Below, in pieces: positions 309-47,839 of a DNA stretch of 64,000 bases (position 1 is its first letter; each line of letters opens with the position of its first letter). Origin of the DNA: Candidatus Acidiferrum sp. (GTDB taxonomy: Bacteria; Methylomirabilota; Methylomirabilia; Rokubacteriales; CSP1-6); NCBI GenBank assembly GCA_035635775.1, contig DASQAL010000254.1:13035-77034 (forward strand), written 5' to 3'. The notes beneath the pieces were generated by a model. It was not told the DNA's origin, did no database searches, and saw only the letters and a list, made by a program, of their open reading frames with translations. A program made the translations under genes and the position numbers.

Positions 309-1484
309 CTATCTCATCGCGGCCGCGACCCCGCCGGGCAGCCAGTCCCGCACCGCCGCCCGCGTCCGGGTGTCAACGTCCACGCACGTGTCGATACTGT
401 CGAGCGCCCGCGCGGGCACCCGCGCCAGCGCTTCCGCGATCAGCTCGGGAATCTGGGTGAAGCGGATGCGGCCGGCGAGGAAGGCGGCGACCGCGATCTC
501 GTTGGCCGCGTTCAGGATCACCGGCGCGCACCCGCCCTCCCGCAAGGCCCGGCGCGCCAGGTCCAGGCACGGGAAGCGCTCCACGTCCGGCTCCTCGAAG
601 GTGAGCGGCCCGATCCGGGTGAGGTCCAGGCGCTCCGCCGGACAGGGTAGGCGCCGCGGGTACGTCAGCGCGTAGAGGATCGGGATGCCCATGTCGGCCA
701 CCCCGAGCTGGGCGATGACCGACCCGTCCACGTACTCGACCATCGAGTGCACGATCGACTGCGGATGCACCACCACCTGCACCTGCTCGGGCTCGAGGTC
801 GAAGAGCCAGCGCGCCTCGATGACCTCGAGGCCCTTGTTCATGAGGGTGGCGGAGTCCACCGTGATCTTGGCGCCCATCCGCCACGTCGGATGGTTCAGC
901 GCCTCCTCCACCGTGACCTTCGCGAGGTCCGCCGCCTTCATCGTCCGGAACGGCCCGCCGGAGGCGGTGAGCAGCACCCTTCCCACCTCGGCGCGGTTGT
1001 GGCCCTCGAGACACTGGAAGACCGCGCTGTGCTCGGAATCCACCGGCAGCAGCGGGACGCCGCGCTCCCGGGCCGCCGCGGTCATCAGGCTGCCCGCCAT
1101 GACCAGCGTCTCCTTGTTGGCCAGCGCGATGCTCTTGCCGCTCTTGATCGCGGCCATGGTGGGCAAGAGGCCCGCCCCGCCCACGATGGCGGAGAGCAGC
1201 ACGTCGGCCTCCACCTCCCCGGCGAGCGTCACGATGCCGGCGGGACCGGCGAGCAGCTCGGGCCGCGGGGACCCCAGCGCGCGCGCCACCGCGTCGAGCG
1301 CCCCCGCATCGGCCACCGCCAGGGCCCGCGGCCGGTGACGGCGGCACAGCTCCGCGAGCAGCTCCGGGTTGGAGCCGCGGGCCGCCATGCCCTCCACCCG
1401 GAACTCGTCGGGGAAATGCTCGGCCAGCTCGAGCGCGCGCCGCCCCACGGAGCCGGTCACCCCCAGCACGGTCAGCCGTTTCAT
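309..1484 (-). CDS. dxr: 1-deoxy-D-xylulose 5-phosphate reductoisomerase
   Basis: C-terminal 391 aa of the supplied 641-aa ORF (MKRLTVLGVTGSVG... NADPH-binding N-terminus, LANKE, DSEHSA motifs); start ATG overlaps cdsA stop (ATGA). Confidence 0.9.
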   Translation of the reverse strand: MKRLTVLGVTGSVGRRALELAEHFPDEFRVEGMAARGSNPELLAELCRRHRPRALAVADAGALDAVARALGSPRPELLAGPAGIVTLAGEVEADVLLSAIVGGAGLLPTMAAIKSGKSIALANKETLVMAGSLMTAAARERGVPLLPVDSEHSAVFQCLEGHNRAEVGRVLLTASGGPFRTMKAADLAKVTVEEALNHPTWRMGAKITVDSATLMNKGLEVIEARWLFDLEPEQVQVVVHPQSIVHSMVEYVDGSVIAQLGVADMGIPILYALTYPRRLPCPAERLDLTRIGPLTFEEPDVERFPCLDLARRALREGGCAPVILNAANEIAVAAFLAGRIRFTQIPELIAEALARVPARALDSIDTCVDVDTRTRAAVRDWLPGGVAAAMR

Positions 1485-2350
1485 GCGCCCAGGGACCTCG
1501 CGTACGTCGCGTAGTAGAAGAGGACCGGCGTGTTGACGAGCAGGCTGTCCACGCGGTCCAGCATCCCGCCGTGCCCGGGGATGAGCCGCCCGGTGTCCTT
1601 GGTGCCGACGCTCCGCTTGATGGCGGACTCGAGGAGATCGCCGGCCTGGCCCACCACGCCGAGCAGGAGCCCGACCACGACCGCGCTCTCGAGAGAGAGC
1701 GCCGGGAAGAACGTCGCGCGCGCGCCCAGCGCGGCCAGCACCGACATCACGAGCTGCGCGAGCGCGCCCTCCACCGTCTTGCCGGGGCTGATCGCGGGGG
1801 CGAGCTTGTGGCGACCCACGGTGGAGCCGACCAGGTAGGCGGCGGTCTCGCCGAGCCACGTGACCCCAACCAGAAGCAGGATCCATTCCCGACCGGCGTC
1901 CAGATCGCGCAGCCAGAACGTGTAGCCGAGCAGCCAGTTCACGTAGCAGACGCCGAACAGGGTGACCGCCACCGGCTCCCAGGCCGGGCGGGCCGCCGGG
2001 GGCCGCAGCAGCCCGACCGCGAGCAGCGCGAGAAGCACCGCGGTGAGCACCACCCGCTCGGACACCGGCAGCGCAAAGCTCGCGGTCACGAGCGAGCCGC
2101 CCACCAGCCCGAGCAGGCGGAAGGTCCGCACGCCCGCCCGCTCGAACATGCCGGTGAACTCCCATTGCCCGAGCGCGCCCGCGAGCACCATGACCGCCCC
2201 GAACACCCACACCGATCCGTCCGCGACCATCCACACGAACAGGGGCAGGAGGATCAGCGTGCTCAGGAGCCGGCGCACGAGCCCTCCGCGGTGGGAGGGG
2301 ACCGCCTGCTCGACCGACCCAGAGAGCGGCACGCCCTGTGCTCGGGACAT
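1481..2350 (-). CDS. cdsA: phosphatidate cytidylyltransferase
   Basis: Multi-TM protein ending in the CTP_transf_1 signature (...KRSVGTKDTGRLIPGHGGMLDRVDS); chosen start MSRAQ overlaps uppS stop as TGATG. Confidence 0.85.
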   Translation of the reverse strand: MSRAQGVPLSGSVEQAVPSHRGGLVRRLLSTLILLPLFVWMVADGSVWVFGAVMVLAGALGQWEFTGMFERAGVRTFRLLGLVGGSLVTASFALPVSERVVLTAVLLALLAVGLLRPPAARPAWEPVAVTLFGVCYVNWLLGYTFWLRDLDAGREWILLLVGVTWLGETAAYLVGSTVGRHKLAPAISPGKTVEGALAQLVMSVLAALGARATFFPALSLESAVVVGLLLGVVGQAGDLLESAIKRSVGTKDTGRLIPGHGGMLDRVDSLLVNTPVLFYYATYARSLGA

Positions 2351-3132
2351 CAAACTTTTCCGAAGCGGCGGTCCCGCTGCTGGAAGTCGGCGATCGCGAG
2401 ACAGAACTCGCGCGCCCCGAAATCCGGCCAGAGGGTCGGCGTCATCCACAACTCGGTGTAGGCGACCTGCCATAGGAGGAAGTTGGACAGACGCAGCTCC
2501 CCGCTCGTGCGGATCAGCAGGTCCGGGTCGGGGATGCCGTCGGTGTAGAGCGCGCGGGAGACGCGAACCTCGTCGATATCTTCCGGCCGCAACTGTCCGC
2601 TCAGCACCTCGCGGGCGAGCGCGCGCACCGCGTCCACCAGCTCGTCGCGACCGCCGTAGTTGAAGGCCATGAGCAGGGTGAGGCCGGTATTGCGCGACGT
2701 CGTCTCGATGAGCCGCTGGATGCGCTCGCCCACCCGCGCGGGCACCCCGTCCGCACGGCCGATCACCCGGAAACGCACGTTGCGCTCCATGAGCTCGGGC
2801 AGCTCGCGCTCGATGGACCGCTCCAGCAGGGCCATCAGGGTGGACACCTCCTGATGGGGCCGGTTCCAGTTCTCCGAGGAGAACGCGTAGAGGGTGAGGA
2901 ACTGGATGCCGAGCTCACCCGCGGTGCGCACGACCGCCCGCACCGACTTGACGCCCTCACCGTGCCCGGCCACGCGCGGCAGCCCGCGGTTGGTGGCCCA
3001 GCGCCCGTTGCCGTCCATGATGACCGCCACGTGCCGCGGGCGCGGCCGGGCCAGGATGCGCTGCTTGAGATCGTCCTCGTGGAGCGTCGACAGCTCCGAC
3101 ACCGCCGCGGAGATCCCGGCCTTCGCCGCCAT
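2350..3132 (-). CDS. uppS: undecaprenyl-diphosphate synthase (cis-prenyltransferase)
   Basis: HVAVIMDGNGRWA, FSSENWNRP, RTSGELRLSNFLLWQ motifs. Confidence 0.92.
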   Translation of the reverse strand: MAAKAGISAAVSELSTLHEDDLKQRILARPRPRHVAVIMDGNGRWATNRGLPRVAGHGEGVKSVRAVVRTAGELGIQFLTLYAFSSENWNRPHQEVSTLMALLERSIERELPELMERNVRFRVIGRADGVPARVGERIQRLIETTSRNTGLTLLMAFNYGGRDELVDAVRALAREVLSGQLRPEDIDEVRVSRALYTDGIPDPDLLIRTSGELRLSNFLLWQVAYTELWMTPTLWPDFGAREFCLAIADFQQRDRRFGKV

Positions 3133-3239
3133 ATCGGGCCATGTTACGTGAGCCCCCTAAGAATTGCCAGGAAAAACCCCCGATAGAACCAAAAACCAGG
3201 AAATATTTCGGGCGCTTACAGGCAACCGGCGACGCAGCA

Positions 3240-3330
3240 GCAACGAGTGTCCGCGGACTGGGGGAGTGCGGGGGCCATTTCTGGGCCCCCGCATTTCAAA
3301 AGAGCTTAAAGAACTAAACGGTAATGAGCC
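3240..3330. repeat. ~65-bp AT-richer intergenic repeat with perfect hairpin GCGGGGGCC-N7-GGCCCCCGC followed by A/T-rich tail; second near-identical copy at 28486-28556
   Basis: gggggagtgcgggggccatttctgggcccccgcatttcaaaagagcttaaagaactaaacgg here versus its reverse complement (about 90% identical) upstream of dinB; lies in the frr-uppS intergenic gap. Confidence 0.7.
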
Positions 3331-3360
3331 AGACGGTTGTCCGCAGAACCCCGCCGCCAA

Positions 3361-3921
3361 CTACACCGTCATCACTTCCTGCTCCTTCTTCCTCGCCAGC
3401 TCGTCGATCTTCACGGTGAACCGATCGGTGGTCTTCTGGATCTGGTCGTGGCCGCGCCGCTCCTCGTCCTCGGACACCTTCTTGTCCTTGGCGAGGGCCT
3501 TGAGCTTGTCGTTGGCTTCGCGGCGCGCGTTGCGAATCGCGACCCGCGCGTCCTCCGCGAACTTCCCGACCGTCTTGGCCAGCTGCTTGCGCCGCTCCTC
3601 GGTCAGCGAGGGCACCGTGAGCCGGATCACCTTGCCGTCGTTGCTCGGGGTGAGCCCCAGGTCGGACTTGGCGATGCCCTTCTCGATCTCCTTCATCTGC
3701 GAGGCGTCCCACGGCTGGATCACGATCGTGCGCGGGTCGGGCACCGACACCGACGCGAGCTGGTTGATCGGGGTCAGGTTGCCGTACGCTTCGACGCGCA
3801 CCCCGTCCAGGAGCGAGGCGTTGGCGCGGCCGGTGCGGACGCTCGCGAACTCCCGCGTCAGCGCGTCCACCGCGGTCTGCATACGGCTCTCGAGATCCTT
3901 CAACACCGCCGGTTGGCTCAT
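3361..3921 (-). CDS. frr: ribosome recycling factor
   Basis: 186-aa product with typical RRF sequence (LLDGVRVEAYG..., C-terminal coiled region). Confidence 0.92.
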   Translation of the reverse strand: MSQPAVLKDLESRMQTAVDALTREFASVRTGRANASLLDGVRVEAYGNLTPINQLASVSVPDPRTIVIQPWDASQMKEIEKGIAKSDLGLTPSNDGKVIRLTVPSLTEERRKQLAKTVGKFAEDARVAIRNARREANDKLKALAKDKKVSEDEERRGHDQIQKTTDRFTVKIDELARKKEQEVMTV

Positions 3922-3924
3922 GGC

Positions 3925-5284
<1,360 letters not shown>

Positions 5285-5298
5285 GGAGGCGTCCTGCC

Positions 5299-6078
5299 TC
5301 AGACGCCGGCTTCCGCCGACTTCGTCATCTCCGCCTCGGTCACCACCGGCATGTCGGGCGAGGCCGGGATCTCCTCCTCCACCTCCTGCTTGGCGAGGCT
5401 GCCGATGCCCTCGATGATCGCGTCCGCGATCCGGGAGGTGATGAGGCGCACCGACCGGATGGCGTCGTCGTTGCCCGGCACCGGGTAGTCGATCCCGGAG
5501 GGATCGCAGTTGGTGTCCACGATCGCCACGATCGGGATGGACAGCCGGCGGGCCTCCTCCACCGCGATCGTCTCCTTCTTGGGATCGATGATGAACACCG
5601 CGGAGGGCAGCCGGTCCATGTTCTTGATGCCGACCAGCGTGCTCTGCAGCTTCGCCCGCTCCCGCTCGAGCCCGATCACTTCCTTCTTGGGCAGCCGCTC
5701 GTACTCGCCGGTCTCGCTCATCTCGTCGAGCTTCTTGAGCCGCGCGATGGACTTCCGGATCGTCGCGAAGTTGGTGAGGGTCCCGCCCAGCCAGCGGTGG
5801 TTGACGTAGAACATCCCGCAGCGGGTGGTCTCCTCCAGCACCGTCTCCTGGGCCTGCTTCTTGGTGCCCACGAAGAGCACGATGCCCCCGTCGGCGGCGA
5901 GATCGCGCACGAAGGCGTAGGCCTCGCGGAACTTCTTGAGGGTCTTCTGCAGGTCGATGATGTAGATGCCGTTGCGCTCGCCGAAGATGTACTTCTGCAT
6001 CTTCGGGTTCCAGCGCTTGGTCTGGTGGCCGAAGTGCACCCCGGCCTCCAGCAATTCCTTCATGGTCAGCGTTGCCAT
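5299..6078 (-). CDS. rpsB: 30S ribosomal protein S2
   Basis: [22 protein letters not shown]... canonical S2 N-terminus. Confidence 0.95.
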
Positions 6079-7427: not shown

Positions 7428-8477
7428 CTACGGATACACCGGAGGCGCGTCGAGACCGGTCCGCTCGTCCCACCCCATCATGATGTTGAGGTTCTGGATC
7501 CCGTTGGCGGAGCCGCCCTTGCCCAGGTTGTCGAGCGCGGACACGCAGACCGCGCGCTTCGTGCGCGGGTCGGCCACCACCGTGACGTCGCAGAAGTTCG
7601 AGCCCACCACCGACCGCGTGGTCGGGCGCTGCCCCTCGTCGAGCACGCGCACGAACGGCTCGCCCGCGTAGAACTCCTGGTAGAGGGCCACCAGCTCCGC
7701 GGTCGTGGCCGGCTTGGCGAGCGGCACCGACGCGGTGGTGAAGAGCCCGCGGTTGAGCGGCACCAGGTGCGGCGTGAACGCGACCACCACCGGCCGGCCC
7801 GCCAGCGCGGAGAGCTCCTGCTCGATCTCGGGGGTGTGCCGGTGGGTGCCCATGGCGTAGGCCTGCACGTTCTCGTTCGCCTCGGTGAAGAGGTACATCG
7901 GGTCGGCCTTGCGGCCCTGGGCGCCCGCGCCGGTGACCCCGGACTTGCCGTCGATCACGATGCCCTCGACGCTCCCGCGCCCGCTCTTGAGCAGCGGCGC
8001 GGTGGCGAGGATCGCGCCCATCGGGTAGCAGCCGGGCGAGGCCACCAGGGACGCGCCCGCGACCTGCTTGCGGTGCAGCTCGGGCAGGCCGTAGACCGCC
8101 TCGGCCAGCCCGCTCGCGTCCTCGTGGGGCGCCTTGTACCACGTGGTGTACAGCGTCGCGTCCTTCAAGCGGTAGTCGGCGGAGAGATCGATGGCCTTCT
8201 TGCCGTGACGCCGGAGCGTCGGCATCAGCCGCTGGGATTCCATGTGCGGCAGCGCGAGAAAGACGACATCGGCCTCGTCGGCCAGGCGCTCCCGGTGGAT
8301 CTCCTGGAACACGAGATCGCTGAGCCCCCGGAGGTGCGGGTAGACGCGGTCGAGGCGCTCGCCCGCGAGCCGCTCGGAGGTGACCGCGCTGATGCGCACC
8401 TTGGGATGGACGGTCAGGAGGCGCAGCAGCTCCGCCCCCATGTACCCGCTGGCCCCGGTGACCGCGATTCTCAACAT
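7428..8477 (-). CDS. argC: N-acetyl-gamma-glutamyl-phosphate reductase
   Basis: MLRIAVTGASGYMGAELLRLL Rossmann N-terminus and SPGCYP active-site Cys motif. Confidence 0.92.
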   Translation of the reverse strand: MLRIAVTGASGYMGAELLRLLTVHPKVRISAVTSERLAGERLDRVYPHLRGLSDLVFQEIHRERLADEADVVFLALPHMESQRLMPTLRRHGKKAIDLSADYRLKDATLYTTWYKAPHEDASGLAEAVYGLPELHRKQVAGASLVASPGCYPMGAILATAPLLKSGRGSVEGIVIDGKSGVTGAGAQGRKADPMYLFTEANENVQAYAMGTHRHTPEIEQELSALAGRPVVVAFTPHLVPLNRGLFTTASVPLAKPATTAELVALYQEFYAGEPFVRVLDEGQRPTTRSVVGSNFCDVTVVADPRTKRAVCVSALDNLGKGGSANGIQNLNIMMGWDERTGLDAPPVYP

Positions 8478-8494
8478 GGCGGCCTCGCGGGCGG

Positions 8495-8890
8495 TTACCG
8501 CTTCGAGTACTGGAACTTGGAGCGCGCGCCGGGCTGGCCGTACTTCTTGCGCTCCTTCATCCGCGGATCGCGGGTGAGGAGGCCGGCCCGCTTGAGCGTC
8601 TGGCGCAGCTTGTCGTCGAACTGCAGCAGCGCCCGCGCGATCCCGTGGCGCACCGCCCCCGCCTGGCCGGTGGGGCCGCCACCGCCCACGTTCACGATCG
8701 CGTCGAACTGCCCGAACGTGTTGGTGAGCTGGAGCGGCTGGGAGATGACCATGCGCAGCGTCTCGCGCGGAAAGTAGTCCTCGAAGGGACGGCGATTGAT
8801 CAGGATGCGGCCGCTGCCCGCCCGCAGCCAGACGCGAGCGACCGAGGTCTTGCGGCGACCGGTTCCGTAGAAACGACTGACGACGGCCAT
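8495..8890 (-). CDS. rpsI: 30S ribosomal protein S9
   Basis: [20 protein letters not shown] ... C-terminal KFQYSKR; upstream 49 codons of the listed ORF are a spurious extension. Confidence 0.93.
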
Positions 8891-8898
8891 GGGGCTCC

Positions 8899-9342
8899 TC
8901 AGCGGGCGCGCTCGCGCAGGGCGAGCGGCTCGGGCTTCTGGGCGGCGTGCGGGTGCTCCGCGCCCTTGTAGACCTTCAGCTTCTTGGCCATCGCGCGGCC
9001 GAGACGGCCCTTCGGGAGCATGCCCTGCACCGCCCACTCGATCACGCGCTCCGGATGCGTCTTGAGCATCCGCTCCGCGCTGACCTCGCGCAGTCCCCCG
9101 ATGTAGCCGCTGTGCCAGCGATAGATCTTGTCGGTCAGCTTGCGCCCGGTGAGGTGCACCTTCTCGGCATTGATGACCACCACGTGATCACCCACGTCGA
9201 GGTGCGGCGAGAACTGGGGCTTGTGCTTGCCCCGCAGCACCGTCGCCACCTGGGTGGCGAGGCGGCCCAGCACCCGATCCTGGGCATCGACCAGGAACCA
9301 CTTGTGCTCTACATCCTCTTCCTTCGGCATTACCGTCGTCAT
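8899..9342 (-). CDS. rplM: 50S ribosomal protein L13
   Basis: [30 protein letters not shown]...; GGAGAT Shine-Dalgarno 5 nt upstream of the chosen ATG. Confidence 0.9.
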
Positions 9343-9404
9343 GATCTCCGTCCGGATGGGACCGCCTACCGCCACGTCGAACACCCCGGCAAATGGCAAC
9401 GGGT

Positions 9405-9434
9405 AATCATAAAAGAAAGACTCCACGCGGTCAA
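9405..9434 (-). promoter_or_regulatory. sigma-70-type promoter for rplM-rpsI(-argCJ): TTGACC-17 nt-TATGAT
   Basis: Minus-strand reading TTGACCgcgtggagtctttctttTATGAT about 60 nt upstream of rplM start; near-consensus hexamers with 17-nt spacer. Confidence 0.7.
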
Positions 9435-9438
9435 CTAC

Positions 9439-10128
9439 CTACCCTGCCCGGCGACGGGACCCGGGCGCGGCGGGGCCCGCCTTCGTCTTGCCCGACCACG
9501 GGCACCGCGCCAGGATCGGGCAGGTCGGGCAGGCCGGCTTGCGGGCGGCGCAGACGCGCCGGCCGTGGAGGATGAGCAGGTGGCTGGCCTGGACCCAGCG
9601 CGGGCGCGGCAGGACCTGGCAGAGCTGGTCGTGGATCTTCTCGGGATCGTCGCCCCGGGCCAGCCCCAGGCGCTGCGAGACCCGGAAGACGTGGGTGTCC
9701 ACCGCCAGCGCCGGGATGCCGAAGGCATTGCCCAGCACCACGTTGGCGGTCTTCCGGCCGACCCCGGGGAGCGCCACCAGGTCTTCCAGAGTGCGTGGGA
9801 CCTCACCCGCGTGGCGCTCCACCAGCGCCCGGGCCATGCCGTTGAGCGACCGGGCCTTGGCCCGGAAGAAGCCGGTGGAATGGATCTCGCGCTCGAGGAC
9901 GGACAACGGCACCGCGGCCCAGTCCGCGGCACGTCGGTAGCGCGGGAAGAGCCCGGCGGTGACCATGTTGACGCGCTCGTCGGTGCACTGCGCGGACAGG
10001 ATCGTCGCGACCAGCAGCTCGAGCGGCGTGGTGAAGTCGAGCGCGGTGCGCGCGTCCGGATAGGCCTTCGCCAGCCGGGTCAGGATCTTGCCCGCCCGCG
10101 CCTTCTTCTCCGCAAGACTCTCGGCCAT
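9439..10128 (-). CDS. nth: endonuclease III (DNA glycosylase / AP lyase)
   Basis: HhH-GPD motif LPGVGRKTANVV and C-terminal 4Fe-4S ligands CAARKPACPTCPILARCP; start ATG overlaps upstream stop (TGATG). Confidence 0.9.
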   Translation of the reverse strand: MAESLAEKKARAGKILTRLAKAYPDARTALDFTTPLELLVATILSAQCTDERVNMVTAGLFPRYRRAADWAAVPLSVLEREIHSTGFFRAKARSLNGMARALVERHAGEVPRTLEDLVALPGVGRKTANVVLGNAFGIPALAVDTHVFRVSQRLGLARGDDPEKIHDQLCQVLPRPRWVQASHLLILHGRRVCAARKPACPTCPILARCPWSGKTKAGPAAPGSRRRAG

Positions 10129-12368
10129 CAGCGTGACTCCTTCGTCTTCGTCGCGGCGGCAGGCGTCTTCGTCGCGGCGGCGGGCGTCGCGGCGGTGGGG
10201 GCCGGATCCTCGCCCACCTCGAGCCGCGCCCGCTGGATGCGAATCGGCGCCATCGACACCGGCATGGGCAGCCGGCGCAGGCGCGGGGTCGGGCCGAAGT
10301 TTCTCACGATCCAGTCCACCAGGAACCCCGGCAGCCGCACCCCGGCGTAGCGGAGGTCGGCGGCACGCAGGGTGAACGGCGCGGGCGGCGACCCCGCCGC
10401 CAGCGCCAGCCGCGCCGAGAGCCCAGGCCCCGGCAGCGCCCAGCGGGCCTGGATCCACCCCTCGTCCATCGTGGCGCGCAGCCCGGCCAGGCCGCGCTGC
10501 TGGGCGATGAACTCGCCCAGGTCCCGCTCGGCGATCCCCAGCCGCTCCACGTGGAGGGAGCCGACGTCGAGGAGCTCGACCGCGCCGGTGACCGCGAGCC
10601 GGCCCGGGTTCACCACCATGTCGCGGACGCGCAGGCGCACCGGGCCGATGCGCAGCGGCGGCTTCCGCCGGACGAACGCGCCGACCAGCGCCGACTCCGC
10701 CTCCACCGTGATCGTGTCCACCGATCCGGCCGCCAGCCCGTCGTCTCGGTAATCGACGGTCACGCGGAGGCCCTGCGCGTCGCGGACTACGTCGGCCAGC
10801 AGCCCGGCCACACCGCGCCGCAGCCTCATGGCGAGCTCGGCCGGCGCCACCCCACGGACCGGCTCGAGGTGGCGCATCCGCACCATGCCCTCGCTGCCGT
10901 CCGGCAGCGGCACGCGCGCGATCACCGGGTAGGCCGCGGCCAGCCACGGGTCCCCACCCTCCAGCGCGGCCATGATCCGGTCGGGCTTGGCGGAGGCCGC
11001 GTCGGGCCCCTGGTCACCCGTTTTCACGATGGCGAAGTCGACGCCGAGCGGGGCCTGCTCCCACGCGCGGCTCAGGCGGAGCGGCAGCCGATCGCGCGTC
11101 ACCTCGTAGCGGAAGTTGGATACCGAGAGGAAGTTGTCGTTGGGCACCACCGCCACCCGCGCCCCGCCGGGGCCCGCCGCCCGCAGGATGGCGTCGAGGA
11201 TCTCCCGATGATGCCAGTCCCGCCCGTCAGGCGGCCAGGAGAACGCCACCGAGGAGACGGTCGGCGCCAGCAGCGTGGGCGGCGGGAGCGCGAAGGCCGC
11301 CGAGCCCACCTGCGCGACGCCCACGATCGCGCAGGCCCAGCCGAGCCCCCGCCGCGCGCGCGGCGGGAGCGCGCTCACGCCGGCCCCCGTCACCAGCGCC
11401 GCGGCAGGCAGGAGCGGCAGGGTGTAGCGCAGGTTCTTGTTCTGGATGAGGACGAAGATCAGGCACGGCGCCAGGGCGGCCCACAGGAGGCCGCGGGCCC
11501 GCGGCCGGCGCGCGAGCGCCACGATCCCCCACAGCAAGAGCGCGGTCGCCAGGAGACCCCACTGGGGAATGATCCCCTGGGGATAGAACAGCAGCGAGGA
11601 GCCGCTGAACGCCGGCGCGTGCCCCGATTCGGCCGCCTGCTTGAACGAGCGGTTGATGATCTGCGCCGGCAACCCGACCAGGCGCGGCCCGTACCACGGC
11701 AGCGTGATCGCCGCGGCCACCCCCAGCGCGGCGAGCAGGTGCATCATGCGGGCCCGGCGCTCCGGCGCTCGGAGCCCCCGCCACGCGACCCAGAGGAGCG
11801 GCCCCGAGAGATACGCGGCGAAGGGCGGCTTGGTGAGCATGCCCAGGCCGAGCACCAGGCCCAGCCCGAGCGTCCACCGGCGGACCGACAGATCCTCCGT
11901 CCGCACGAGCGTGTAGAGGGAAAGGGCCACCATGGCGGCCAGCGGCAGGTCGAGCTGGAAGTTCAGCAGCATGAACACGACGAAGGGCGCGGTCGCGAAC
12001 AGGAAGGCCGCGAGCAGGCCCGCGTCGGCGTCGAGCAGCCGTCGCCCGAGGCCGAAGACGGCGAGCGTGCCCACGACCAGGAAAGCCCAGATCACCGCCT
12101 GGGCGGTCAGCGGAACGATGGGCAACGCGAAGTAGAGGAGCCCGGCCGCGCACGTCGCGATCGGCGGGTAGAAGCTCGACTCGGCGATGATCTCCTGCAG
12201 CCAGTCGCGCCCCGGCGCGGCGAGGCTCCGGTGACAGGCGACGGCGCGCTCGAGATGGTTGGCGTGATCCCATTCGGGCGGGCGGCGATCGATCCCGAGC
12301 CAGACGACCATGACCGTGGCCAGCCCGACCAGCAGACCGGTCAGCGCGAGCCGGTGCCGGCCGCTCAT
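10128..12368 (-). CDS. GT-C superfamily membrane glycosyltransferase (PMT/ArnT-like, GT39/GT83 type) with ~330-aa C-terminal soluble domain of unknown function
   Basis: About 12 predicted TM helices in the N-terminal 400 aa resembling polyprenyl-phosphate-sugar dependent transferases; C-terminal tail has tandem TPAAATK repeat; start overlaps methyltransferase stop (ATGA). Confidence 0.6.
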   Translation of the reverse strand: MSGRHRLALTGLLVGLATVMVVWLGIDRRPPEWDHANHLERAVACHRSLAAPGRDWLQEIIAESSFYPPIATCAAGLLYFALPIVPLTAQAVIWAFLVVGTLAVFGLGRRLLDADAGLLAAFLFATAPFVVFMLLNFQLDLPLAAMVALSLYTLVRTEDLSVRRWTLGLGLVLGLGMLTKPPFAAYLSGPLLWVAWRGLRAPERRARMMHLLAALGVAAAITLPWYGPRLVGLPAQIINRSFKQAAESGHAPAFSGSSLLFYPQGIIPQWGLLATALLLWGIVALARRPRARGLLWAALAPCLIFVLIQNKNLRYTLPLLPAAALVTGAGVSALPPRARRGLGWACAIVGVAQVGSAAFALPPPTLLAPTVSSVAFSWPPDGRDWHHREILDAILRAAGPGGARVAVVPNDNFLSVSNFRYEVTRDRLPLRLSRAWEQAPLGVDFAIVKTGDQGPDAASAKPDRIMAALEGGDPWLAAAYPVIARVPLPDGSEGMVRMRHLEPVRGVAPAELAMRLRRGVAGLLADVVRDAQGLRVTVDYRDDGLAAGSVDTITVEAESALVGAFVRRKPPLRIGPVRLRVRDMVVNPGRLAVTGAVELLDVGSLHVERLGIAERDLGEFIAQQRGLAGLRATMDEGWIQARWALPGPGLSARLALAAGSPPAPFTLRAADLRYAGVRLPGFLVDWIVRNFGPTPRLRRLPMPVSMAPIRIQRARLEVGEDPAPTAATPAAATKTPAAATKTKESR

Positions 12369-13093
12369 GAATCGGCGCGCCGGGCCGCCAGCAGGATCGA
12401 GATGCCGAACGGGGGCGACATCCACCCGAGGAGCCGGGCCTCGGCCGAGAAGCAGGCGGCGAGCGCGCGGTTCCACCGCGGCGCCGGACGGTCGAGATCG
12501 TGCCCGGGTCGCCGCAGCGCCGCCCGCACGAGGCGCACCGCCATGATCGGCGGAGCCAGAAGCGTGTTGAAGTAGGTCAGCCGCTCCACCGCGAAGCCGG
12601 CCCGCTCCGCGACCTGTCGCAGACCCCTCGCCGTGTAGCGGCGGCGGTGGCCCAGCAGCTCGTCGTGGCGGCTCCAGAGCCAGGCGTAGGCCGGCACCGT
12701 CACGAAGAGGCGGCCGCCCGGCACGAGGAGCCGCCGGCAGGCGGAGAGGGCCCCGGCCTCGTCGTCCACGTGCTCGAGCACGTCGAAGAGGCAGACCGCG
12801 TCCCAGCGGCCGAGCTCGAGCGGGATCGCGTCCGGCAGGGCGCCCGCCCGCACGTCGAGGCCGCGCTCGCGGGCGCGGGCGCGGAGCGCGGGATCCGTCT
12901 CGACGCCGACCGCGGTGCCGAAGCGCCCGAGCGCCTCCAGCATGCCGCCGCTGCCGCAGCCGAGCTCGGCCAGGCGCGCGCCTCCCGCGGGCAGCCGGCG
13001 GGCCATCTCGGCGAGGATGACCGCGCGCCGGCCGACGAACCACCAGTGGGCGCGGTCCTCTTCCGCGTGCACCGCCGCGTACGCTGGGTCCAT
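12365..13093 (-). CDS. class I SAM-dependent methyltransferase
   Basis: LAELGCGSGGMLE (motif I), DAVCLFDVLEHV, LLVPGGRLFV motif order typical of Methyltransf_11/23. Confidence 0.75.
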   Translation of the reverse strand: MDPAYAAVHAEEDRAHWWFVGRRAVILAEMARRLPAGGARLAELGCGSGGMLEALGRFGTAVGVETDPALRARARERGLDVRAGALPDAIPLELGRWDAVCLFDVLEHVDDEAGALSACRRLLVPGGRLFVTVPAYAWLWSRHDELLGHRRRYTARGLRQVAERAGFAVERLTYFNTLLAPPIMAVRLVRAALRRPGHDLDRPAPRWNRALAACFSAEARLLGWMSPPFGISILLAARRADS

Positions 13094-13097
13094 GCGG

Positions 13098-13520
13098 TCA
13101 GGCGAGGGCCCGGCGTATCGTCTCGATCCGCTCGCGCGCGGTGGCGGGCGCCAGGGGCGCCGCCTGGTGCTCGACCGTCCAGATCGGCGCGCGGAGCCCG
13201 GGATCGGTCGCCAGGCGTGGCACCAGGTGCCAGTGAATGTGCGGCACCAGGTTGCCGAGCAGCTCGTAGTTCATCTTGACGGGGCGGAAGACGCGGGCGA
13301 GCGCCTGTGCCACGCGACTCACCTCCTCCATGAGCGTCGCGCGCTCCGGCGCGGGCAGATCATAGAGCTCGGTGACGTGCCGGCGCAGCACCAGGAGCAC
13401 GTAGCCGGGGAAGAACTGGTCCTCGTGCAGGAACACGCGGGAGAGGTCCAGATCGACGACGTGCAGGTCGCCGCCGCTCCGGCCGTACTTGTCGCACATC
13501 ACACAGGCCACGTCGGTCAC
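13098..13520 (-). CDS. HIT (histidine triad) family hydrolase
   Basis: C-terminal HIHWHLVPR histidine triad; N-terminal CVMCDK resembles the CxFC of HIT proteins; GTG start overlapping aminotransferase stop (ATG 21 nt downstream is an alternative). Confidence 0.65.
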   Translation of the reverse strand: MTDVACVMCDKYGRSGGDLHVVDLDLSRVFLHEDQFFPGYVLLVLRRHVTELYDLPAPERATLMEEVSRVAQALARVFRPVKMNYELLGNLVPHIHWHLVPRLATDPGLRAPIWTVEHQAAPLAPATARERIETIRRALA

Positions 13521-14659
13521 GGGCGCTCGGACAGGAAGCGGCCGATCCGGACCATCGCCTCCTGGATCCGCTCGAGCGACTGGGCGTACGAGAAGCGCAG
13601 GTAGCCCTCCGCATTGCGGCCGAAATCCACGCCGGGCGTCACGCCCACGTGGGCCTGCTCGAGGATCTCGAACGCGAACGCGAGCGAGTCGCTCGTAAAG
13701 CGGCGGGCGTTGGCCAGCACGTAGAAGGCGCCGGTGGGCGGCGCGCCGACGCCGAGCCCGATGCTCCGGAGGCCGGCCACCATCGCCCGCCGCCGCTCGT
13801 CGAAGATGCGGCGGAAGCGGGCGCTCTCGTCGGCCGCCTCCCGGAGGGCGGCGAGCGCCGCCCACTGCACGAACTCGTTGGTCGAGATGAAGAAGTTGCC
13901 GTGCATGGCGGCCAGCGCGGGCATGAACTCCCGAGGGGCGATCACGTAGCCGACGCGCCAGCCGGTCATGGCGAAGGCCTTGGAGAAGCCGTTCAGCACG
14001 AACGCGTGGTCGGTGAACTCGAGCACGGTGTGCTCCGGCCCCTCGTAGGTGAGGCCGTGGTAGATCTCGTCGGAGATCACCCAGGGGCCGAGGCGGCAGA
14101 GGGCGGCCAGCCGCTCCGCGCTCAGCACGGTGCCGGTCGGGTTGGCCGGCGAGTTGACGAGGATGCCCTTGGTCCGCGGGGTGAGGCGGGCCGCCACCGC
14201 GTCCGGCCGGAACTGGAAGGCGTCCGACTCCTCCACCGGCACGTAGACCGGCACGCCGCCCGAGAACTTCACGAACTTCGGATAGCAGGCGTAGTAGGGG
14301 TCGGAGAGGATCACCTCGTCGCCCGGGTCGACCAGCGCGCTGAAGAGCAGCAGCATCGCGGGCGAGGTGCCCGCGGTCACCAGGATCTGGTCCGGCGATA
14401 CCGTCACGCCGTAGCGGGCGTGGTAGTGCTCGGCGATCGCCTCGCGCAGCGGCAGGATCCCGAGGGTGTGGGCGTAGCGGGTGCGACCGTCCTTGAGCGC
14501 CTTCTCGGCCGCCTCGCGGATGACGGCCGGCGTGTCGAAGTCCGGCTCCCCGAACTCCAGGTGGATGACGTCGATCCCCTGCCGCTCGAGGGCCTGGGCG
14601 CGCTGGAAGACCTCGACGGCCAGGAACGGCTCGATCTCCTGGGTGCGGCGCGCGATCAT
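13517..14659 (-). CDS. pyridoxal-phosphate-dependent aminotransferase, class I/II (aspartate/aromatic aminotransferase fold)
   Basis: 380-aa product; SKAFAMTGWRVGY lysine region, NSPANPTG, typical AAT_I fold order. Confidence 0.85.
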   Translation of the reverse strand: MIARRTQEIEPFLAVEVFQRAQALERQGIDVIHLEFGEPDFDTPAVIREAAEKALKDGRTRYAHTLGILPLREAIAEHYHARYGVTVSPDQILVTAGTSPAMLLLFSALVDPGDEVILSDPYYACYPKFVKFSGGVPVYVPVEESDAFQFRPDAVAARLTPRTKGILVNSPANPTGTVLSAERLAALCRLGPWVISDEIYHGLTYEGPEHTVLEFTDHAFVLNGFSKAFAMTGWRVGYVIAPREFMPALAAMHGNFFISTNEFVQWAALAALREAADESARFRRIFDERRRAMVAGLRSIGLGVGAPPTGAFYVLANARRFTSDSLAFAFEILEQAHVGVTPGVDFGRNAEGYLRFSYAQSLERIQEAMVRIGRFLSERP

Positions 14660-15405
14660 GCGCCCCGACCTCCGGTCGGGCGCCCGCCGAGACGACGCCG
14701 CGCCGCCAGCACCTCGTAGACCATGCGCGGCCCCTCGCGCAGCACGCCGACCTTGGACCCCGGCTGGTCGGCCCAGTTGATCGGAACCTCCACGATGCGG
14801 AAGCCGCGGCGCTCGGCGAGCATCAGCAGCTCGACGTCGAAGCCGAAGCCGTCGGTGGTGACGTGCGGGAAGAGCGCCTCCGCCGCCGCCGCGCGGAAGA
14901 GCTTGAAGCCGCATTGGGTGTCCACCACCGAGGCGATCCCGAGGCGCCGCACCAAGAAGTTGAACACGTGGCCGGAGAGCTTGCGATGCAGGCGGACCTG
15001 GCGGATCACCGAGGGGTCGTGGAGCACGCGCGAGCCGACCGCGAGGTCGGCGCCCGCCACCACCGCCGCTTCGAGCCGCGCCACCTCCCCGATGGGCGTG
15101 GCCCCGTCCGCGTCGGCCATGAGCCGGAGCCGGCCGGCCGCCCGCGCCATGCCCGCGCGCACCGCGTGGCCCTTGCCCCGGTTCCGGCCGAGCGCGTGCA
15201 CGGTCACGCTTGTCCGCCCGGCGGCCACCTCGCGCACCCGGTCGGCGGTCCCGTCCTGGCTGCCGTCGTCCACGACGATCACCTCGTACGACTCGTCGCG
15301 CCCCTCGAAATAGGCCTGGATCTCCTTCAGATAGCTGGGCAGCCGGGACGCCTCGTTGTACGCGGGGATGACCACCGACCAGCGCGGGCCCCGCACGCCG
15401 CCCAC
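14656..15405 (-). CDS. GT2 family polyprenyl-phosphate glycosyltransferase (DPM1/ArnC/GtrB-like)
   Basis: SVVIPAYNE, VVDDGSQDGT, DAD motifs; start uncertain (GTG candidates at 15405 or 15396); the listed ATG would overlap the malic-enzyme gene by 70 nt. Confidence 0.75.
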   Translation of the reverse strand: MGGVRGPRWSVVIPAYNEASRLPSYLKEIQAYFEGRDESYEVIVVDDGSQDGTADRVREVAAGRTSVTVHALGRNRGKGHAVRAGMARAAGRLRLMADADGATPIGEVARLEAAVVAGADLAVGSRVLHDPSVIRQVRLHRKLSGHVFNFLVRRLGIASVVDTQCGFKLFRAAAAEALFPHVTTDGFGFDVELLMLAERRGFRIVEVPINWADQPGSKVGVLREGPRMVYEVLAARRRLGGRPTGGRGA

Positions 15406-15412
15406 GGGCGCC

Positions 15413-16849
15413 CTAGAACCAGTCGGGCGCGTCGGCGCGGCGGCGGCGCCGGGCCACGCCCGTCTTCTGGGCGGCCTTCGCAACCTCGCGGGCCACCGCG
15501 GGCGCCACCTGCTTGTTGAAGACGCTCGGGATGATGTACTCGGGGCCCAGCTCGGCGCGGCCCACGCAGGAGGCGATGGCGTGGGCGGCCGCGATCTTCA
15601 TCTCGTCGTTCACCAGCCGCGCCCGGGAATCGAGCAGCCCGCGGAAGAAGCCGGGGAAGCAGAGCACGTTGTTGATCTGGTTCGGGTAGTCGGAGCGGCC
15701 GGTAGCCATCACCCGCACGTGGCGCTCGGCCTCCTCCGGCTGGATCTCGGGCACCGGGTTCGCCATCGCGAAGACGATCCGGTCGCGGGCCATGCTCTTG
15801 ACGTCCCGCACCGTGAGCACCCGCGGCACCGACAGGCCGATGAACACGTCCGCGCCCCGGATGGCGTCGGACATCCGGCCCTTGACGTTGCCGGGATTGG
15901 TCGCCGAGGCCACCCACGTCTTCATGAAGTCCATCCCGACGGGACGGCCCCGGTGGATCGTCCCGTGCTCGTCCACCCCGATGATGTTCCGGGTCCCTAA
16001 GGCGAGCAGGATCTTGATCGTCGCGGTCCCGGCGGCGCCCACGCCGGAGACTACCACCTTGATCCGGCGGATGTCCTTCTTGACGATCTTGAGCGCGTTG
16101 AGGAGCGCGGCCAGCACCACCACCGCGGTGCCGTGCTGATCGTCGTGGAAGACCGGGATGTCCAGCTCCTTCCGCAGCCGCTCCTCGATCTCGAAGCAGC
16201 GCGGGGCCGAGATGTCCTCCAGGTTGATCCCCCCGAAGGCGGGGGCGATCATCTTCACCGTCTCCACGATCTTGCCCGGATCCTTGGTGTCCAGCGGGAT
16301 GGGAAAAGCGTCCACCCCGGCCAGCTGCTTGAAGAGCATGGCCTTGCCTTCCATGACCGGCATGGCCGCTTCGGGTCCGATGTCGCCCAGCCCCAGGACC
16401 GCGGTGCCGTCGGTGACCACCGCCACCGCGTTCTGCTTGATGGTCAGGGTGAAGGCCCGGCTCGGGTCGTCCTTGATCGCGAGGCAGACCCGCGCCACCC
16501 CCGGGGTATACGCCATGCTGAGGTCGTCGCGGGTCCGGATCGGCACCTTGCTGTGGATCTCGATCTTGCCGCCCAGATGCATCAGGAACGTGCGGTCCGA
16601 GATATTGGCGATCCGCACCCCGGTGATGCCCTTGAGGCGATCGACGATGTCGTGGGCATGCCGGCTGTCGCGGGCCTTGATCGTGATGTCGCGGAGGACG
16701 TGCTCCCTGCTCATCTCGACCAGGTCCACGGCCCCGATGTCCCCGCCGGCCTTGCCGATGACCGAGGTGACGCGGCCCAGCATTCCGGGCTTGTTCCGGA
16801 TCCCGAGCCGAACCGTGAAGCTGTAGGAGGCGCTGGGGGCTACGGCCAT
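15413..16849 (-). CDS. NAD(P)-dependent malic enzyme with N-terminal ACT regulatory domain
   Basis: ACT-like N-terminus (SFTVRLGIRNKPGMLGRVTSVIG) followed by malic-enzyme motifs (YTPGVA, FHDDQHGTAVV, VVSGVGAAG); 478-aa version of the 607-aa listed ORF. Confidence 0.8.
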   Translation of the reverse strand: MAVAPSASYSFTVRLGIRNKPGMLGRVTSVIGKAGGDIGAVDLVEMSREHVLRDITIKARDSRHAHDIVDRLKGITGVRIANISDRTFLMHLGGKIEIHSKVPIRTRDDLSMAYTPGVARVCLAIKDDPSRAFTLTIKQNAVAVVTDGTAVLGLGDIGPEAAMPVMEGKAMLFKQLAGVDAFPIPLDTKDPGKIVETVKMIAPAFGGINLEDISAPRCFEIEERLRKELDIPVFHDDQHGTAVVVLAALLNALKIVKKDIRRIKVVVSGVGAAGTATIKILLALGTRNIIGVDEHGTIHRGRPVGMDFMKTWVASATNPGNVKGRMSDAIRGADVFIGLSVPRVLTVRDVKSMARDRIVFAMANPVPEIQPEEAERHVRVMATGRSDYPNQINNVLCFPGFFRGLLDSRARLVNDEMKIAAAHAIASCVGRAELGPEYIIPSVFNKQVAPAVAREVAKAAQKTGVARRRRRADAPDWF

Positions 16850-16961
16850 CAATCGCTCGTCATGGCGGGCATTTAGACGGTAAGACCGGGCCTCCGGCGG
16901 TGTCAACAATTTTCCCGCCGCCGGTTGACCCGCTCGTGGCGCCCATGGTACTCCACCCCCT

Positions 16962-17555
16962 GTGCCTGGACGACTCGCCTCAGCACTGCTCACCGTCGCG
17001 CTCTGCGGAGTCCCCCTCGCAGGATCGGCAATCGCCGAGACCGAGCGCTGGGTTGTGGAGAGCGGCAAGAGCCGCGTGGGCTTCGACGCCTTCCACCCGC
17101 TGGACAACTTCAGCGGAGCGAGCGAGACGCCCAGCGGCGAGGTGGAGCTGGACATCGAGGACCTCAAGAAGCCCATCAAGGGCGCCCTCACCGTGCCGGT
17201 CGCGAGCCTGCGCACCGGGAAGGCCGGGCGGGACAAGGATCTCCGCCGGGCGCTCGACGGAGAGCGCCATCCGGAGATCCGCTATCGGATCGCCAAGGTC
17301 GAGAGCTCGTTCGCGTCGCTGACCGACAACACCGACGTGCTGCTGACCCTCCACGGGATCCTGTCCATGCGGGGCACCGAGCGGCCCGTGAGCTTCATGG
17401 GGCGGGTTCGCCTACGGCAGGGCACCCTCTGGGTTCGCGGCGAGAACCGGATCCGGCCCGCCGACTTCGGAATCCCGCCGCTCCGCTCCTGGCTGATCAG
17501 CATGAAGGAGCACGTCCTGGCCACGTTCGACCTCGTGCTGAGCAAAGCAAAGTAA
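16962..17555 (+). CDS. YceI-like periplasmic polyisoprenoid-binding protein
   Basis: Signal peptide then YceI-family pattern; codon at 16962 reads GTG in the sequence. Confidence 0.65.
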   Translation: MPGRLASALLTVALCGVPLAGSAIAETERWVVESGKSRVGFDAFHPLDNFSGASETPSGEVELDIEDLKKPIKGALTVPVASLRTGKAGRDKDLRRALDGERHPEIRYRIAKVESSFASLTDNTDVLLTLHGILSMRGTERPVSFMGRVRLRQGTLWVRGENRIRPADFGIPPLRSWLISMKEHVLATFDLVLSKAK

Positions 17556-17826
17556 CCTCCTGCCGTACCGTCCTTTTTCAGCCAATCCAGTGCCGTGGTC
17601 CCCTCTGAGCCCGACCCCGGGCTGAATACTCGGCCGGTGCCGCGCGTCTCTGGGAGCGACGCCGAGTCACGAGGAACAAGGTGCGCGGCTTGGGAGTTCC
17701 TCGAATGAACCAACGCTCTCTGAAACGCTAGACCACGAATCGCCATCTAAACGGCGAGGGCGTAGCCCACAAGGAATCGAGGCGGAAAGAAATACCGACA
17801 CATCTCGACGAGTACGAGAGGCCGTA

Positions 17827-47823: not shown

Positions 47824-47839
47824 CAGACTCTCCTCTCGC

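Follow-up and report, generated by a model that had tools for sequence, protein, structure and literature searches.

In GtrA/GtrB/GtrC-type systems, a synthase loads polyprenyl phosphate with a sugar, a flippase moves the sugar, and a GT-C-type transferase decorates a glycan outside the cytoplasm (PMC11127046). A similar pairing is found in ArnC/ArnT, where a family 2 glycosyltransferase (GT2) that serves as lipid-phosphate sugar synthase is matched with a periplasmic-face GT-C enzyme (GT83) acting on a lipid-anchored acceptor, and in mycobacteria, where the helix-less GT2 donor synthase Ppm1 accompanies periplasmic GT-Cs that extend lipid-anchored glycans (PimE, and MptA/B/C with LmeA). Here we describe a locus of this kind in a 64,000-nucleotide stretch of contig DASQAL010000254.1 from Candidatus Acidiferrum sp. 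(assembly GCA_035635775.1, positions 13,035 to 77,034; “the window”, meaning the whole stretch that was analysed), in which a GT2 gene, a methyltransferase (MT) gene and a gene for a 746-residue GT-C protein with an LmeA-like C-terminus lie in a packed run of genes. We lean towards reading the GT2 and the GT-C::LmeA protein, with the MT as an optional addition, as a Ppm1/ArnC-type two-step system that glycosylates a lipid-anchored molecule of the envelope, and towards reading the aminotransferase (AT) and HIT-family genes among them as co-transcribed passengers.

In mycobacteria, the periplasmic, phospholipid-binding protein LmeA maintains the GT-C mannosyltransferase MptA; its discoverers speculate that mannan elongation, which MptA carries out, is linked with the movement of lipid through the periplasm (PMC7643837). 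The described DUF2993 proteins come from actinobacteria, cyanobacteria and firmicutes, and are stand-alone, signal-anchored proteins of ~270 amino acids (aa) that contain the lipid-transfer domains Chorein-N and TULIP (PMC6791001). A glycosyltransferase fusion is mentioned in neither paper (PMC7643837, PMC6791001), and the literature searched yielded no description of a GT-C/DUF2993 fusion or of this Rokubacteria cluster.

The window genes resemble each of these systems in part. Whereas LmeA/DUF2993 is a lone protein of ~270 aa with one N-terminal helix, which works with the GT-C MptA in the mycobacterial lipomannan pathway, here the LmeA-like domain is the covalently fused C-terminus of a 746-aa, 11-helix GT-C; moreover, the organism is a Rokubacterium, and the neighbours of homologues point to lipopolysaccharide (LPS) or O-antigen rather than to phosphatidylinositol mannosides. 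Compared with ArnC/ArnT, the GT2 is without the C-terminal membrane helices of ArnC, there is no ArnA, ArnB, ArnD, ArnE or ArnF, the aminotransferase is of the aspartate aminotransferase (AspAT) type and not of the ArnB/DegT type, and the GT-C has the extra LmeA-like domain. The Gtr systems share the synthase-flippase-transferase logic, but the window cluster has no GtrA-like flippase, its GT2 is without GtrB-type membrane hairpins, the cluster also includes an MT, and its transferase carries a fused lipid-binding domain. In the Agl pathway of archaeal protein N-glycosylation, Haloferax volcanii uses AglJ and AglD as dolichyl-phosphate (Dol-P) hexose synthases, AglP as a methyltransferase, and AglS and AglB as GT-C enzymes. 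The likeness lies in combining a GT2 that synthesizes Dol-P-hexose, an S-adenosylmethionine (SAM)-dependent methyltransferase with a lipid-linked sugar as its target, and a GT-C. The window GT2 has AglJ and the haloarchaeal Dol-P-hexose transferase among its best NCBIfam matches, all of them far below the family cutoffs.

A GT-C transferase fused to an LmeA-like domain

The GT-C gene and its domains are placed as follows.

10128..12368, minus strand: GT-C protein, 746 aa, with PMT_2 and an LmeA-like C-terminus (Pfam)
11289..12368, minus strand: GT-C membrane domain, aa 1-360 (PMT_2, 55.5 bits against a cutoff of 26.1)
10854..11231, minus strand: periplasmic alpha/beta domain, aa ~380-505 (secondary structure of the model)
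10209..10844, minus strand: LmeA-like domain (DUF2993, Chorein-N/TULIP-type), aa ~509-720 (PF11209 and the model)

Structurally, the 746-aa protein is modelled with an ArnT-like GT-C fold (AlphaFold; predicted local distance difference test score, pLDDT, 84.9; predicted template modelling score, pTM, 0.82). The best Foldseek matches of the model were the ArnT structures 5f15/5ezm (E 8e-8), with STT3, ALG12 and AftA also around 1e-7, and PglB and Pmt4 were matched as well (E to 3e-4), in keeping with the first-pass annotation of the window, which had called the protein a GT-C/PMT-like membrane transferase. The modelled likeness to ArnT is at the level of the fold only: NCBIfam gave no match at E ≤0.01, and among PDB sequences there was no match with the single protein and a best E of 0.21 (STT3B) with a 61-sequence profile. 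The positive-inside rule applied to the sequence predicts ~11 transmembrane helices with the N-terminus inside. None of 61 homologues departs from D27, D34 and H38, which this topology places in the first periplasmic loop, and E32 is almost as constant. D140, K180 and P224-W225-Y226, likewise assigned to periplasmic loops, vary little or not at all in the family. In 47 sequences reaching down to 20% identity, the Asp, His, YPP, D140 and K180 columns show conservation of 90% or more.

The predicted topology puts the C-terminal 380 residues in the periplasm. They begin with the alpha/beta domain, which in the model sits where ArnT has its periplasmic domain and which has invariant residues at N410, S415, S417, R420-Y421 and K449...Q453-G454-P455; it has no Pfam match and, alone, no significant PDB match. 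The GT-C/ArnT Foldseek alignments run over 583-592 columns, longer than ArnT itself (537-541 aa). The LmeA-like domain follows, and was missed in the first-pass annotation. PF11209 matches the window protein at E 1.6e-5 (25.5 bits against a gathering threshold of 27.3) over profile positions 10-213 of 217, and is matched by 51 of 61 members of the GT-C family (best E 1.3e-16); the domain is modelled with a pLDDT of 91.6. We predict it to be periplasmic and putatively lipid-binding. Few proteins have the periplasmic module: a search of 1.84 billion representatives gave 210 clusters at E ≤1e-3, and the full-length matches listed are all proteins of 660-790 aa with the module at the C-terminus, one of them from Goldiibacteriota. 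We found no earlier description of the covalent GT-C::LmeA architecture, which defines a rare family that spans several phyla and is built from parts that all belong to known superfamilies.

The same enzymology might instead serve a protein acceptor, the GT-C then being a bacterial protein O-mannosyltransferase (Pmt/GT39-like). This would fit the PMT_2 match and a weak match to PF02366 (PMT), the names given to GT-C homologues by their sources (‘glycosyltransferase family 39’ or dolichyl-phosphate-mannose-protein mannosyltransferase), and the presence of Pmt4 and Pmt1/2 among the Foldseek matches. However, the PF02366 match falls below its cutoff (17.8 against 22.7 bits) and the GT-C has no MIR domain, ArnT outranks the Pmt structures (E 8e-8 versus 3e-4 to 4e-2), the fused domain comes from a phospholipid-binding family, and homologues adjoin O-antigen ligase and heptosyltransferase-family genes, so that we consider a protein acceptor distinctly improbable.

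A GT2 of the polyprenyl-phosphate sugar synthase type

14656..15405, minus strand: GT2 glycosyltransferase, 249 aa (PF00535, 87.6 bits)

Judged by its sequence, the GT2 groups with the polyprenyl-phosphate sugar synthases (Alg5/DPM1/ArnC-like), as had been proposed at first pass. Its nearest solved chains are ArnC (three species), the dolichol-phosphate mannose synthase (DPMS) of P. furiosus (5mlz) and GtrB, and its top four NCBIfam matches are ArnC, the haloarchaeal Dol-P-hexose transferase, PpgS and AglJ, all far under their equivalog cutoffs (76 vs 529, 67 vs 375, 62 vs 370 and 59 vs 325 bits, respectively). The DxD motif is D98-A99-D100, and the 249-aa chain stops shortly beyond the catalytic domain and contains neither a hydrophobic stretch nor a transmembrane segment; it presumably resembles the helix-less type represented by the Ppm1 catalytic domain, PpgS and human DPM1. 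The source database names it dolichyl-phosphate beta-glucosyltransferase (name only). A cytoplasmic polysaccharide synthase, the alternative that the first-pass annotation had named for this enzyme, or a compatible-solute synthase (GpgS-like) was rejected, such matches being N-terminal only and 10-11 orders of magnitude weaker than those to polyprenyl-phosphate sugar synthases.

The methyltransferase and a family of MT-GT2 fusions

12365..13093, minus strand: class I SAM-dependent methyltransferase (MT), 242 aa (Methyltransf_23/11)

MT-GT2 fusions, at loci numbered L in our survey or among proteins numbered P, are listed below.

L021:4906-6375: MT-GT2 fusion
P0398-P0517: MT-GT2 fusions
L067:7001-8455: MT-GT2 fusion
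L070:7001-8479: MT-GT2 fusion

Against solved structures the window MT gives generic class-I matches only, and its place in the system is indicated by the company that its homologues keep. In the fusions, of ~480 aa, a class-I SAM methyltransferase and a DPM1/Alg5-like GT2 form one polypeptide; the family is large, with 64-72% identity among the top 120 matches and members in Chloroflexi, Planctomycetes and Rokubacteria, and to our knowledge it has no described function. The window MT resembles the N-terminal half of the fusions (hhalign probability 97%) and the window GT2 the C-terminal half (hhalign probability 98.8%, 214 columns), at identities of 28-32% and with a DTxCGxK motif common to the GT2 and the fusion. 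At L021, the fusion is followed by two MTs and an unassigned membrane protein just before a paralogous GT-C, and at L067, in a different lineage, it is flanked by two PMT_2 GT-C genes, an epimerase and a GT4. Homologues of the window MT and GT2 thus occur in one protein beside GT-C genes; unlike in the fusions, the window MT and GT2 are separate genes with the AT and HIT genes between them.

Paralogous and distant GT-C loci

Rokubacteria also carry a second, paralogous GT-C::LmeA gene that is 45-52% identical (L016-L025, L034, L035, L040, L049, L054-L056), and at least two assemblies hold both copies (L013 with L023; L006 with L049). Features beside the paralogous gene include the following.

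L017, L019, L035: MT immediately upstream of the paralogous GT-C
L020: MTs on both sides of the GT-C, and a GT2 with an LPG_synthase_TM protein
L056: GT2 with LPG_synthase_TM, a second PMT_2 gene and a Methyltransf_23 gene
L054: Methyltransf_23, an acetyltransferase and a NeuB/DegT/epimerase cluster
L022: GT4 and GDP-mannose 4,6-dehydratase
L016: UDP-glucose/GDP-mannose dehydrogenase
L024: O-antigen ligase immediately upstream

MTs lie directly beside the paralogous GT-C::LmeA at L017, L019, L020, L021, L035, L054 and L056, and LPG_synthase_TM proteins accompany GT2 genes only at paralogous loci. We found no earlier description of this recurring MT association or of the MT-GT2 fusions, both of which favour the grouping of the methyltransferase with the GT2 and the GT-C that the first-pass annotation had made. 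We regard the window MT as an optional decorator that is translationally coupled to the GT-C.

The context in other phyla was surveyed through a representative-library search with the C-terminal module and contig look-ups, four contigs being too short to inform. On a contig of 66% G+C, a full-length GT-C homologue with 31% identity over 745 aa (L061:8001-10286, GCA_964630235.1) is surrounded by a GT2, a GT4, a Wzy_C-GT9 fusion and four genes of the GT9 heptosyltransferase family, and a polysaccharide deacetylase gene overlaps its 3' end; by its gene content, this cluster is of the LPS-core type.

Layout of the locus and its transcription unit

The other genes of the packed run, and the signal that follows it, are listed below.

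15413..16849, minus strand: ACT-domain malic enzyme (ME), 478 aa (Pfam ACT_4, malic, Malic_M)
13517..14659, minus strand: class I aminotransferase (AT), 380 aa (PF00155, 219 bits, full length)
13098..13520, minus strand: HIT-family protein, 140 aa (PF01230, 62.3 bits against a cutoff of 21.5)
9439..10128, minus strand: endonuclease III (nth), 229 aa (TIGR01083, 260.3 bits against a cutoff of 211.7)
9406..9434, minus strand: sigma-70-like promoter match (TTGACC, 17-nt spacer, TATGAT), after nth and ahead of rplM-rpsI

All genes from 9439 to 16849 are on the minus strand, as established from the open reading frame (ORF) listing, start-codon inspection, and Pfam and NCBIfam scans, and the coordinates and domain calls given at first pass for five of them (GT2, AT, HIT, MT and GT-C) were correct, as were the placement of nth directly after the GT-C and of an ACT-malic enzyme immediately upstream of the GT2. 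From 5' to 3', ME and GT2 are separated by a 7-nt spacer, GT2 and AT overlap by 4 nt (ATGA), AT and HIT overlap by 4 nt (GTGA, with the AT stop codon), HIT and MT are separated by a 4-nt spacer (TGAccgcATG), MT and GT-C overlap by 4 nt (ATGA), and the GT-C stop and nth start codons have one base in common (TGATG). The earlier description of a five-gene operon with overlaps of 1-4 nt at every junction is therefore right for GT2/AT, AT/HIT, MT/GT-C and GT-C/nth and for the tight packing, and wrong for HIT/MT; and the packed unit comprises seven genes instead of five, because the packing takes in ME and nth.

This packing is real: of the 6 junctions between ME and nth, 4 are overlaps by 1 or 4 nt, compared with 6 of the 53 other same-strand junctions (Fisher p = 0.006), genes across the window having been called by a codon-usage model trained on the same genes, with approximate starts outside the cluster. 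A scan of 8400-17600 revealed no promoter-like or terminator-like site between ME and nth. The sigma-70-like site (9434-9406, 10 of 12 matches), the sole such site in that interval where 0.2 were expected, is likely a transcription unit boundary. We take nth, the last gene of the run, to be functionally unrelated, while ME probably belongs to central metabolism and lies outside the glycosylation system.

The window has a G+C content of ~70%. Searches of a 5.8-billion-protein collection with the GT-C and the GT2 listed matches almost only from Rokubacteria, and the homologues of both (52-99% identity for the GT-C) come from Candidatus Rokubacteria/Methylomirabilota metagenome bins. The region is thus part of a Rokubacteria chromosome with a long co-directional housekeeping array: the packed run lies inside an array of 19 housekeeping genes with short spacers throughout, rplM, rpsI, argC, argJ, rpsB, tsf, pyrH, frr, uppS, cdsA and dxr follow downstream on the same strand, and a divergent YceI gene and rpoD lie upstream of ME. 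The first-pass annotation had missed this setting, a conserved housekeeping array in which operon packing and synteny carry little functional weight.

As a side observation, the rpsB-tsf-pyrH-frr-uppS-cdsA-dxr string (309-6078, minus strand) that extends the same co-directional array includes an undecaprenyl-diphosphate synthase gene (2350-3132), 7 kb downstream of the glycosylation genes. Its position is probably coincidental; such a uppS-type arrangement in this housekeeping string is common in bacteria.

Synteny and evolutionary rates in relatives

Relatives were scanned with one genome per species, giving 53 loci, 34 of which cover the interval. Across these 34, the order ME-GT2-AT-[HIT]-[MT]-GT-C-nth-rplM-rpsI-argC is kept while GT-C identity drops from 89% to 39%. 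AT is present at 34/34 loci, GT2 at 33/34, HIT at 24/34 and MT at 22/34; HIT and MT occur together at 16, HIT only at 8, MT only at 6, and neither at 4. HIT and MT appear to have been lost several times, since the absences are scattered over the identity range, and one genome (L043) keeps the GT-C where the GT2 is missing. The 4-nt overlaps are conserved in 24/26 relatives for GT2/AT, 18/18 for AT/HIT, 15/17 for MT/GT-C and 0/11 for HIT/MT, and the GT-C/nth overlap is kept in 12/27, a pattern suggestive of translational coupling within two sub-blocks, [ME-GT2-AT-HIT] and [MT-GT-C(-nth)].

Two sets of loci call for separate mention. At L012 and L044, from long-contig metagenome-assembled genomes (MAGs), ME, GT2, AT, HIT and GT-C are split into frame-shifted tblastn pieces, and both lack the MT; the breaks suggest uncorrected long-read indel errors rather than pseudogenes. 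L001, L003, L007, L013, L020, L026, L036 and L039 have a Rokubacteria-type locus with housekeeping genes up to 97% identical, in MAGs whose labels include Limnocylindria, Deferrimicrobiaceae, Nitrosotalea, Verrucomicrobiia, Thermoanaerobaculaceae, Acidoferrum and Nitrosocosmicus; these non-Rokubacteria labels are probably due to binning contamination or mislabelling.

Evolutionarily, the median identities to the window genes are 84% for ME, 82% for argC and rplM, 79% for AT, 71% for nth, 70% for MT, 68% for GT2, 62% for HIT and 58% for GT-C, which places the divergence of the AT close to that of the housekeeping genes argC and rplM. After regression on housekeeping divergence (identities to the window, syntenic genomes), the rate residuals correlate between GT2 and GT-C (rho 0.54), MT and GT-C (0.77), GT2 and MT (0.68), and HIT and GT2 (0.71), with 0.09 between AT and GT-C.

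These patterns bear on the possibility that the genes share no function, being unrelated members of a compact housekeeping unit in which the GT2 feeds a general lipid-linked sugar pool or some other process, the GT-C obtains its donor from elsewhere, and the close junctions are a product of compaction alone. Synteny was rejected as decisive functional evidence: conserved order alone is no proof of shared function, nth, rplM, rpsI and argC being no less syntenic. The overlap of the unrelated nth with the GT-C, the short spacers across the 19-gene array, the retention of the GT-C without a GT2 at L043, and the distant GT-C homologues that stand alone among hut or gcv genes would all fit unrelated neighbours. 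However, MT and GT2 genes recur beside paralogous GT-C::LmeA genes at unrelated loci, MT-GT2 fusions are flanked by GT-C genes, and the MT/GT-C overlap is conserved, and we consider it unlikely that the genes are unconnected.

The aminotransferase and the HIT protein

The AT aligns end to end with the AspAT of T. thermophilus (residues 2-377, E 2.5e-87) and keeps the pyridoxal phosphate (PLP)-lysine motif SKAFAMTGWR and, in the aligned ‘YLRFSYA’, an Arg matching the alpha-carboxylate-binding Arg. At position ~98 it has Ser (‘AGTSPA’) where the Thermus enzyme has Lys109, a residue that binds the distal carboxylate of Asp/Glu, and its best PDB chain is an entry that likewise has Ser at the Lys109 position (‘GGSQA’); the NCBIfam AspAT-type equivalog cutoffs are missed (410 vs 554 bits). 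The match to PF01041 (DegT) is partial (36 bits, aa 73-198) compared with 219 bits over the full length for PF00155, confirming the first-pass view of an AspAT-fold enzyme that is not of the DegT/ArnB type. Known sugar aminotransferases are members of the DegT/DnrJ/EryC1 family. The AT is best described, from its motifs, as an AspAT subgroup Ib-like amino-acid aminotransferase with an uncertain side-chain preference, whose specificity may differ from that of canonical AspAT; it is probably a housekeeping passenger, and possibly works with the malic enzyme encoded upstream.

The HIT protein has the histidine triad HIHWHLV, and its nearest solved chains are HIT proteins without known function (2oik, 3i4s). 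It could be placed in no HIT branch of known substrate (GalT, Ap4A phosphorylase, Fhit, Hint), the sole NCBIfam match being to ATP adenylyltransferase (29.8 vs 290 bits), and it is most likely encoded by an optional, co-transcribed passenger gene. A second HIT-superfamily protein is encoded away from the cluster, a 327-aa ORF (37723-38706, minus strand) with a weak match to the galactose-1-phosphate uridylyltransferase C-terminal domain.

The first-pass annotation had joined the five genes in a single route, and in its fullest form such a pathway would build on a lipid carrier a sugar that is both aminated and methylated, with the AT aminating a keto-sugar or adding an amino acid and the HIT protein handling a nucleotide intermediate. 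The stable GT2/AT and AT/HIT overlaps (24/26 and 18/18), the invariable position of the AT between the GT2 and the GT-C, the absence from the AT of Lys109 of canonical subgroup Ib AspAT, and the HIT-GT2 residual correlation (rho 0.71) are what such a pathway would lead one to expect. Set against them are the end-to-end AspAT alignment with the alpha-carboxylate Arg and PLP-lysine motif kept, the partial DegT match (36 vs 219 bits), an AT rate equal to the housekeeping rate, the loss of HIT from 10 and of MT from 12 of the 34 syntenic loci, and the finding of no class-I AT or HIT gene near any of the paralogous or distant GT-C or MT-GT2 fusion loci examined. Periplasmic-side glycosylation from a lipid-linked sugar, as proposed at first pass, therefore stands as regards the GT2 type, the GT-C fold and the MT link, while amination of the sugar and membership of the AT and the HIT protein are not supported; we leave only a small remainder of probability to the single five-gene pathway, because the GT2/AT and AT/HIT overlaps are very stable.

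Proposed two-step glycosylation

Functionally, we propose that the GT2, the GT-C::LmeA protein and, where present, the MT would work in sequence. The GT2 would make a polyprenyl-phosphate hexose on the cytoplasmic face (databases guess glucose), and the MT, when present, would O-methylate the sugar or its product. The lipid-linked sugar would be flipped by a flippase encoded elsewhere, and the ArnT-like GT-C would transfer the sugar, at the periplasmic face, to a lipid-anchored acceptor, while the LmeA-like domain would bind the acceptor's lipid portion or pass the product towards the outer membrane. As acceptor, the LPS core or O-antigen, or some other glycolipid of the envelope, is the most plausible; what points to LPS or a similar lipoglycan is the ArnT-like fold, the lipid-binding domain, and the O-antigen ligase and heptosyltransferase neighbours of homologues. 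The data show the domain identities, the fold, the gene order, the junctions, the varying gene content and the repeated GT2, MT and glycan-gene surroundings, whereas we infer which donor and acceptor are used, what is methylated and what the LmeA-like domain does.

Several observations weigh against this proposal. The LmeA match of the window protein lies 1.8 bits under the Pfam threshold, and a Foldseek search with the C-terminal module found nothing similar among solved structures. The similarity of the MT to the fusions spans only the generic class-I core (aa 13-171). Among the seven proteins from ME to nth, Pfam gave no match to GtrA or another flippase. The GT2/GT-C partnership is not obligatory by context, because L043 is without the GT2 and because other distant GT-C homologues lie beside hut or gcv (glycine-cleavage) genes with no GT2 nearby. 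With Ser in place of the distal-carboxylate Lys109, the AT may act on a substrate other than that of AspAT, the AT always lies between the GT2 and the GT-C, and a role for the AT and the HIT protein is possible because their GT2/AT and AT/HIT overlaps are the best conserved of all junctions. Covariation of rates is weak support, since argC also correlates with the GT-C (residual rho 0.52) and the genomes are not phylogenetically independent.

A more specific and bolder version of the two-step proposal, which we put forward tentatively and hold to be somewhat unlikely as a whole, is that Chorein-N/TULIP domains of the LmeA type physically partner GT-Cs, and that in Rokubacteria and a few other phyla the transferases of ~730 aa, as a family not described before and fed by a GT2 and an (often fused) MT, put O-methyl-hexose on LPS or another lipoglycan of the envelope.

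Other features of the window

The remainder of the window encodes ordinary metabolism, and Rfam and tRNA scans of the whole 64 kb found no tRNA gene and no Rfam family at its gathering threshold. A Bat/MoxR-type cluster (41047-48862, minus strand) comprises a MoxR AAA+ ATPase, a DUF58 protein, a 1465-aa BatA/VWA/GATase1-like protein and a TPR protein, and also holds a 489-aa ORF (46339-47808) without a Pfam match. A 326-aa ORF (25455-26435, minus strand), between genes for a biotin carboxylase and a DUF455 protein, has good coding statistics and no Pfam match.

Implications

Overlaps of 4 nt and phylum-wide synteny cannot alone define a pathway, because compact, high-G+C genomes also join unrelated genes (here nth, and probably the AT). 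The natural GT-C::LmeA fusion, conserved across a phylum and present in others, offers independent genomic support for a direct partnership between GT-C enzymes and LmeA, and a single-polypeptide model in which that partnership could be studied. If the bolder version of the proposal is true, LmeA-type domains would couple the glycosylation of a lipid-anchored glycan in the periplasm to the passage of that glycan towards the outer membrane. The recurring module of GT2, MT and GT-C probably decorates envelope glycolipids with methylated sugars in soil bacteria that are abundant and uncultured.

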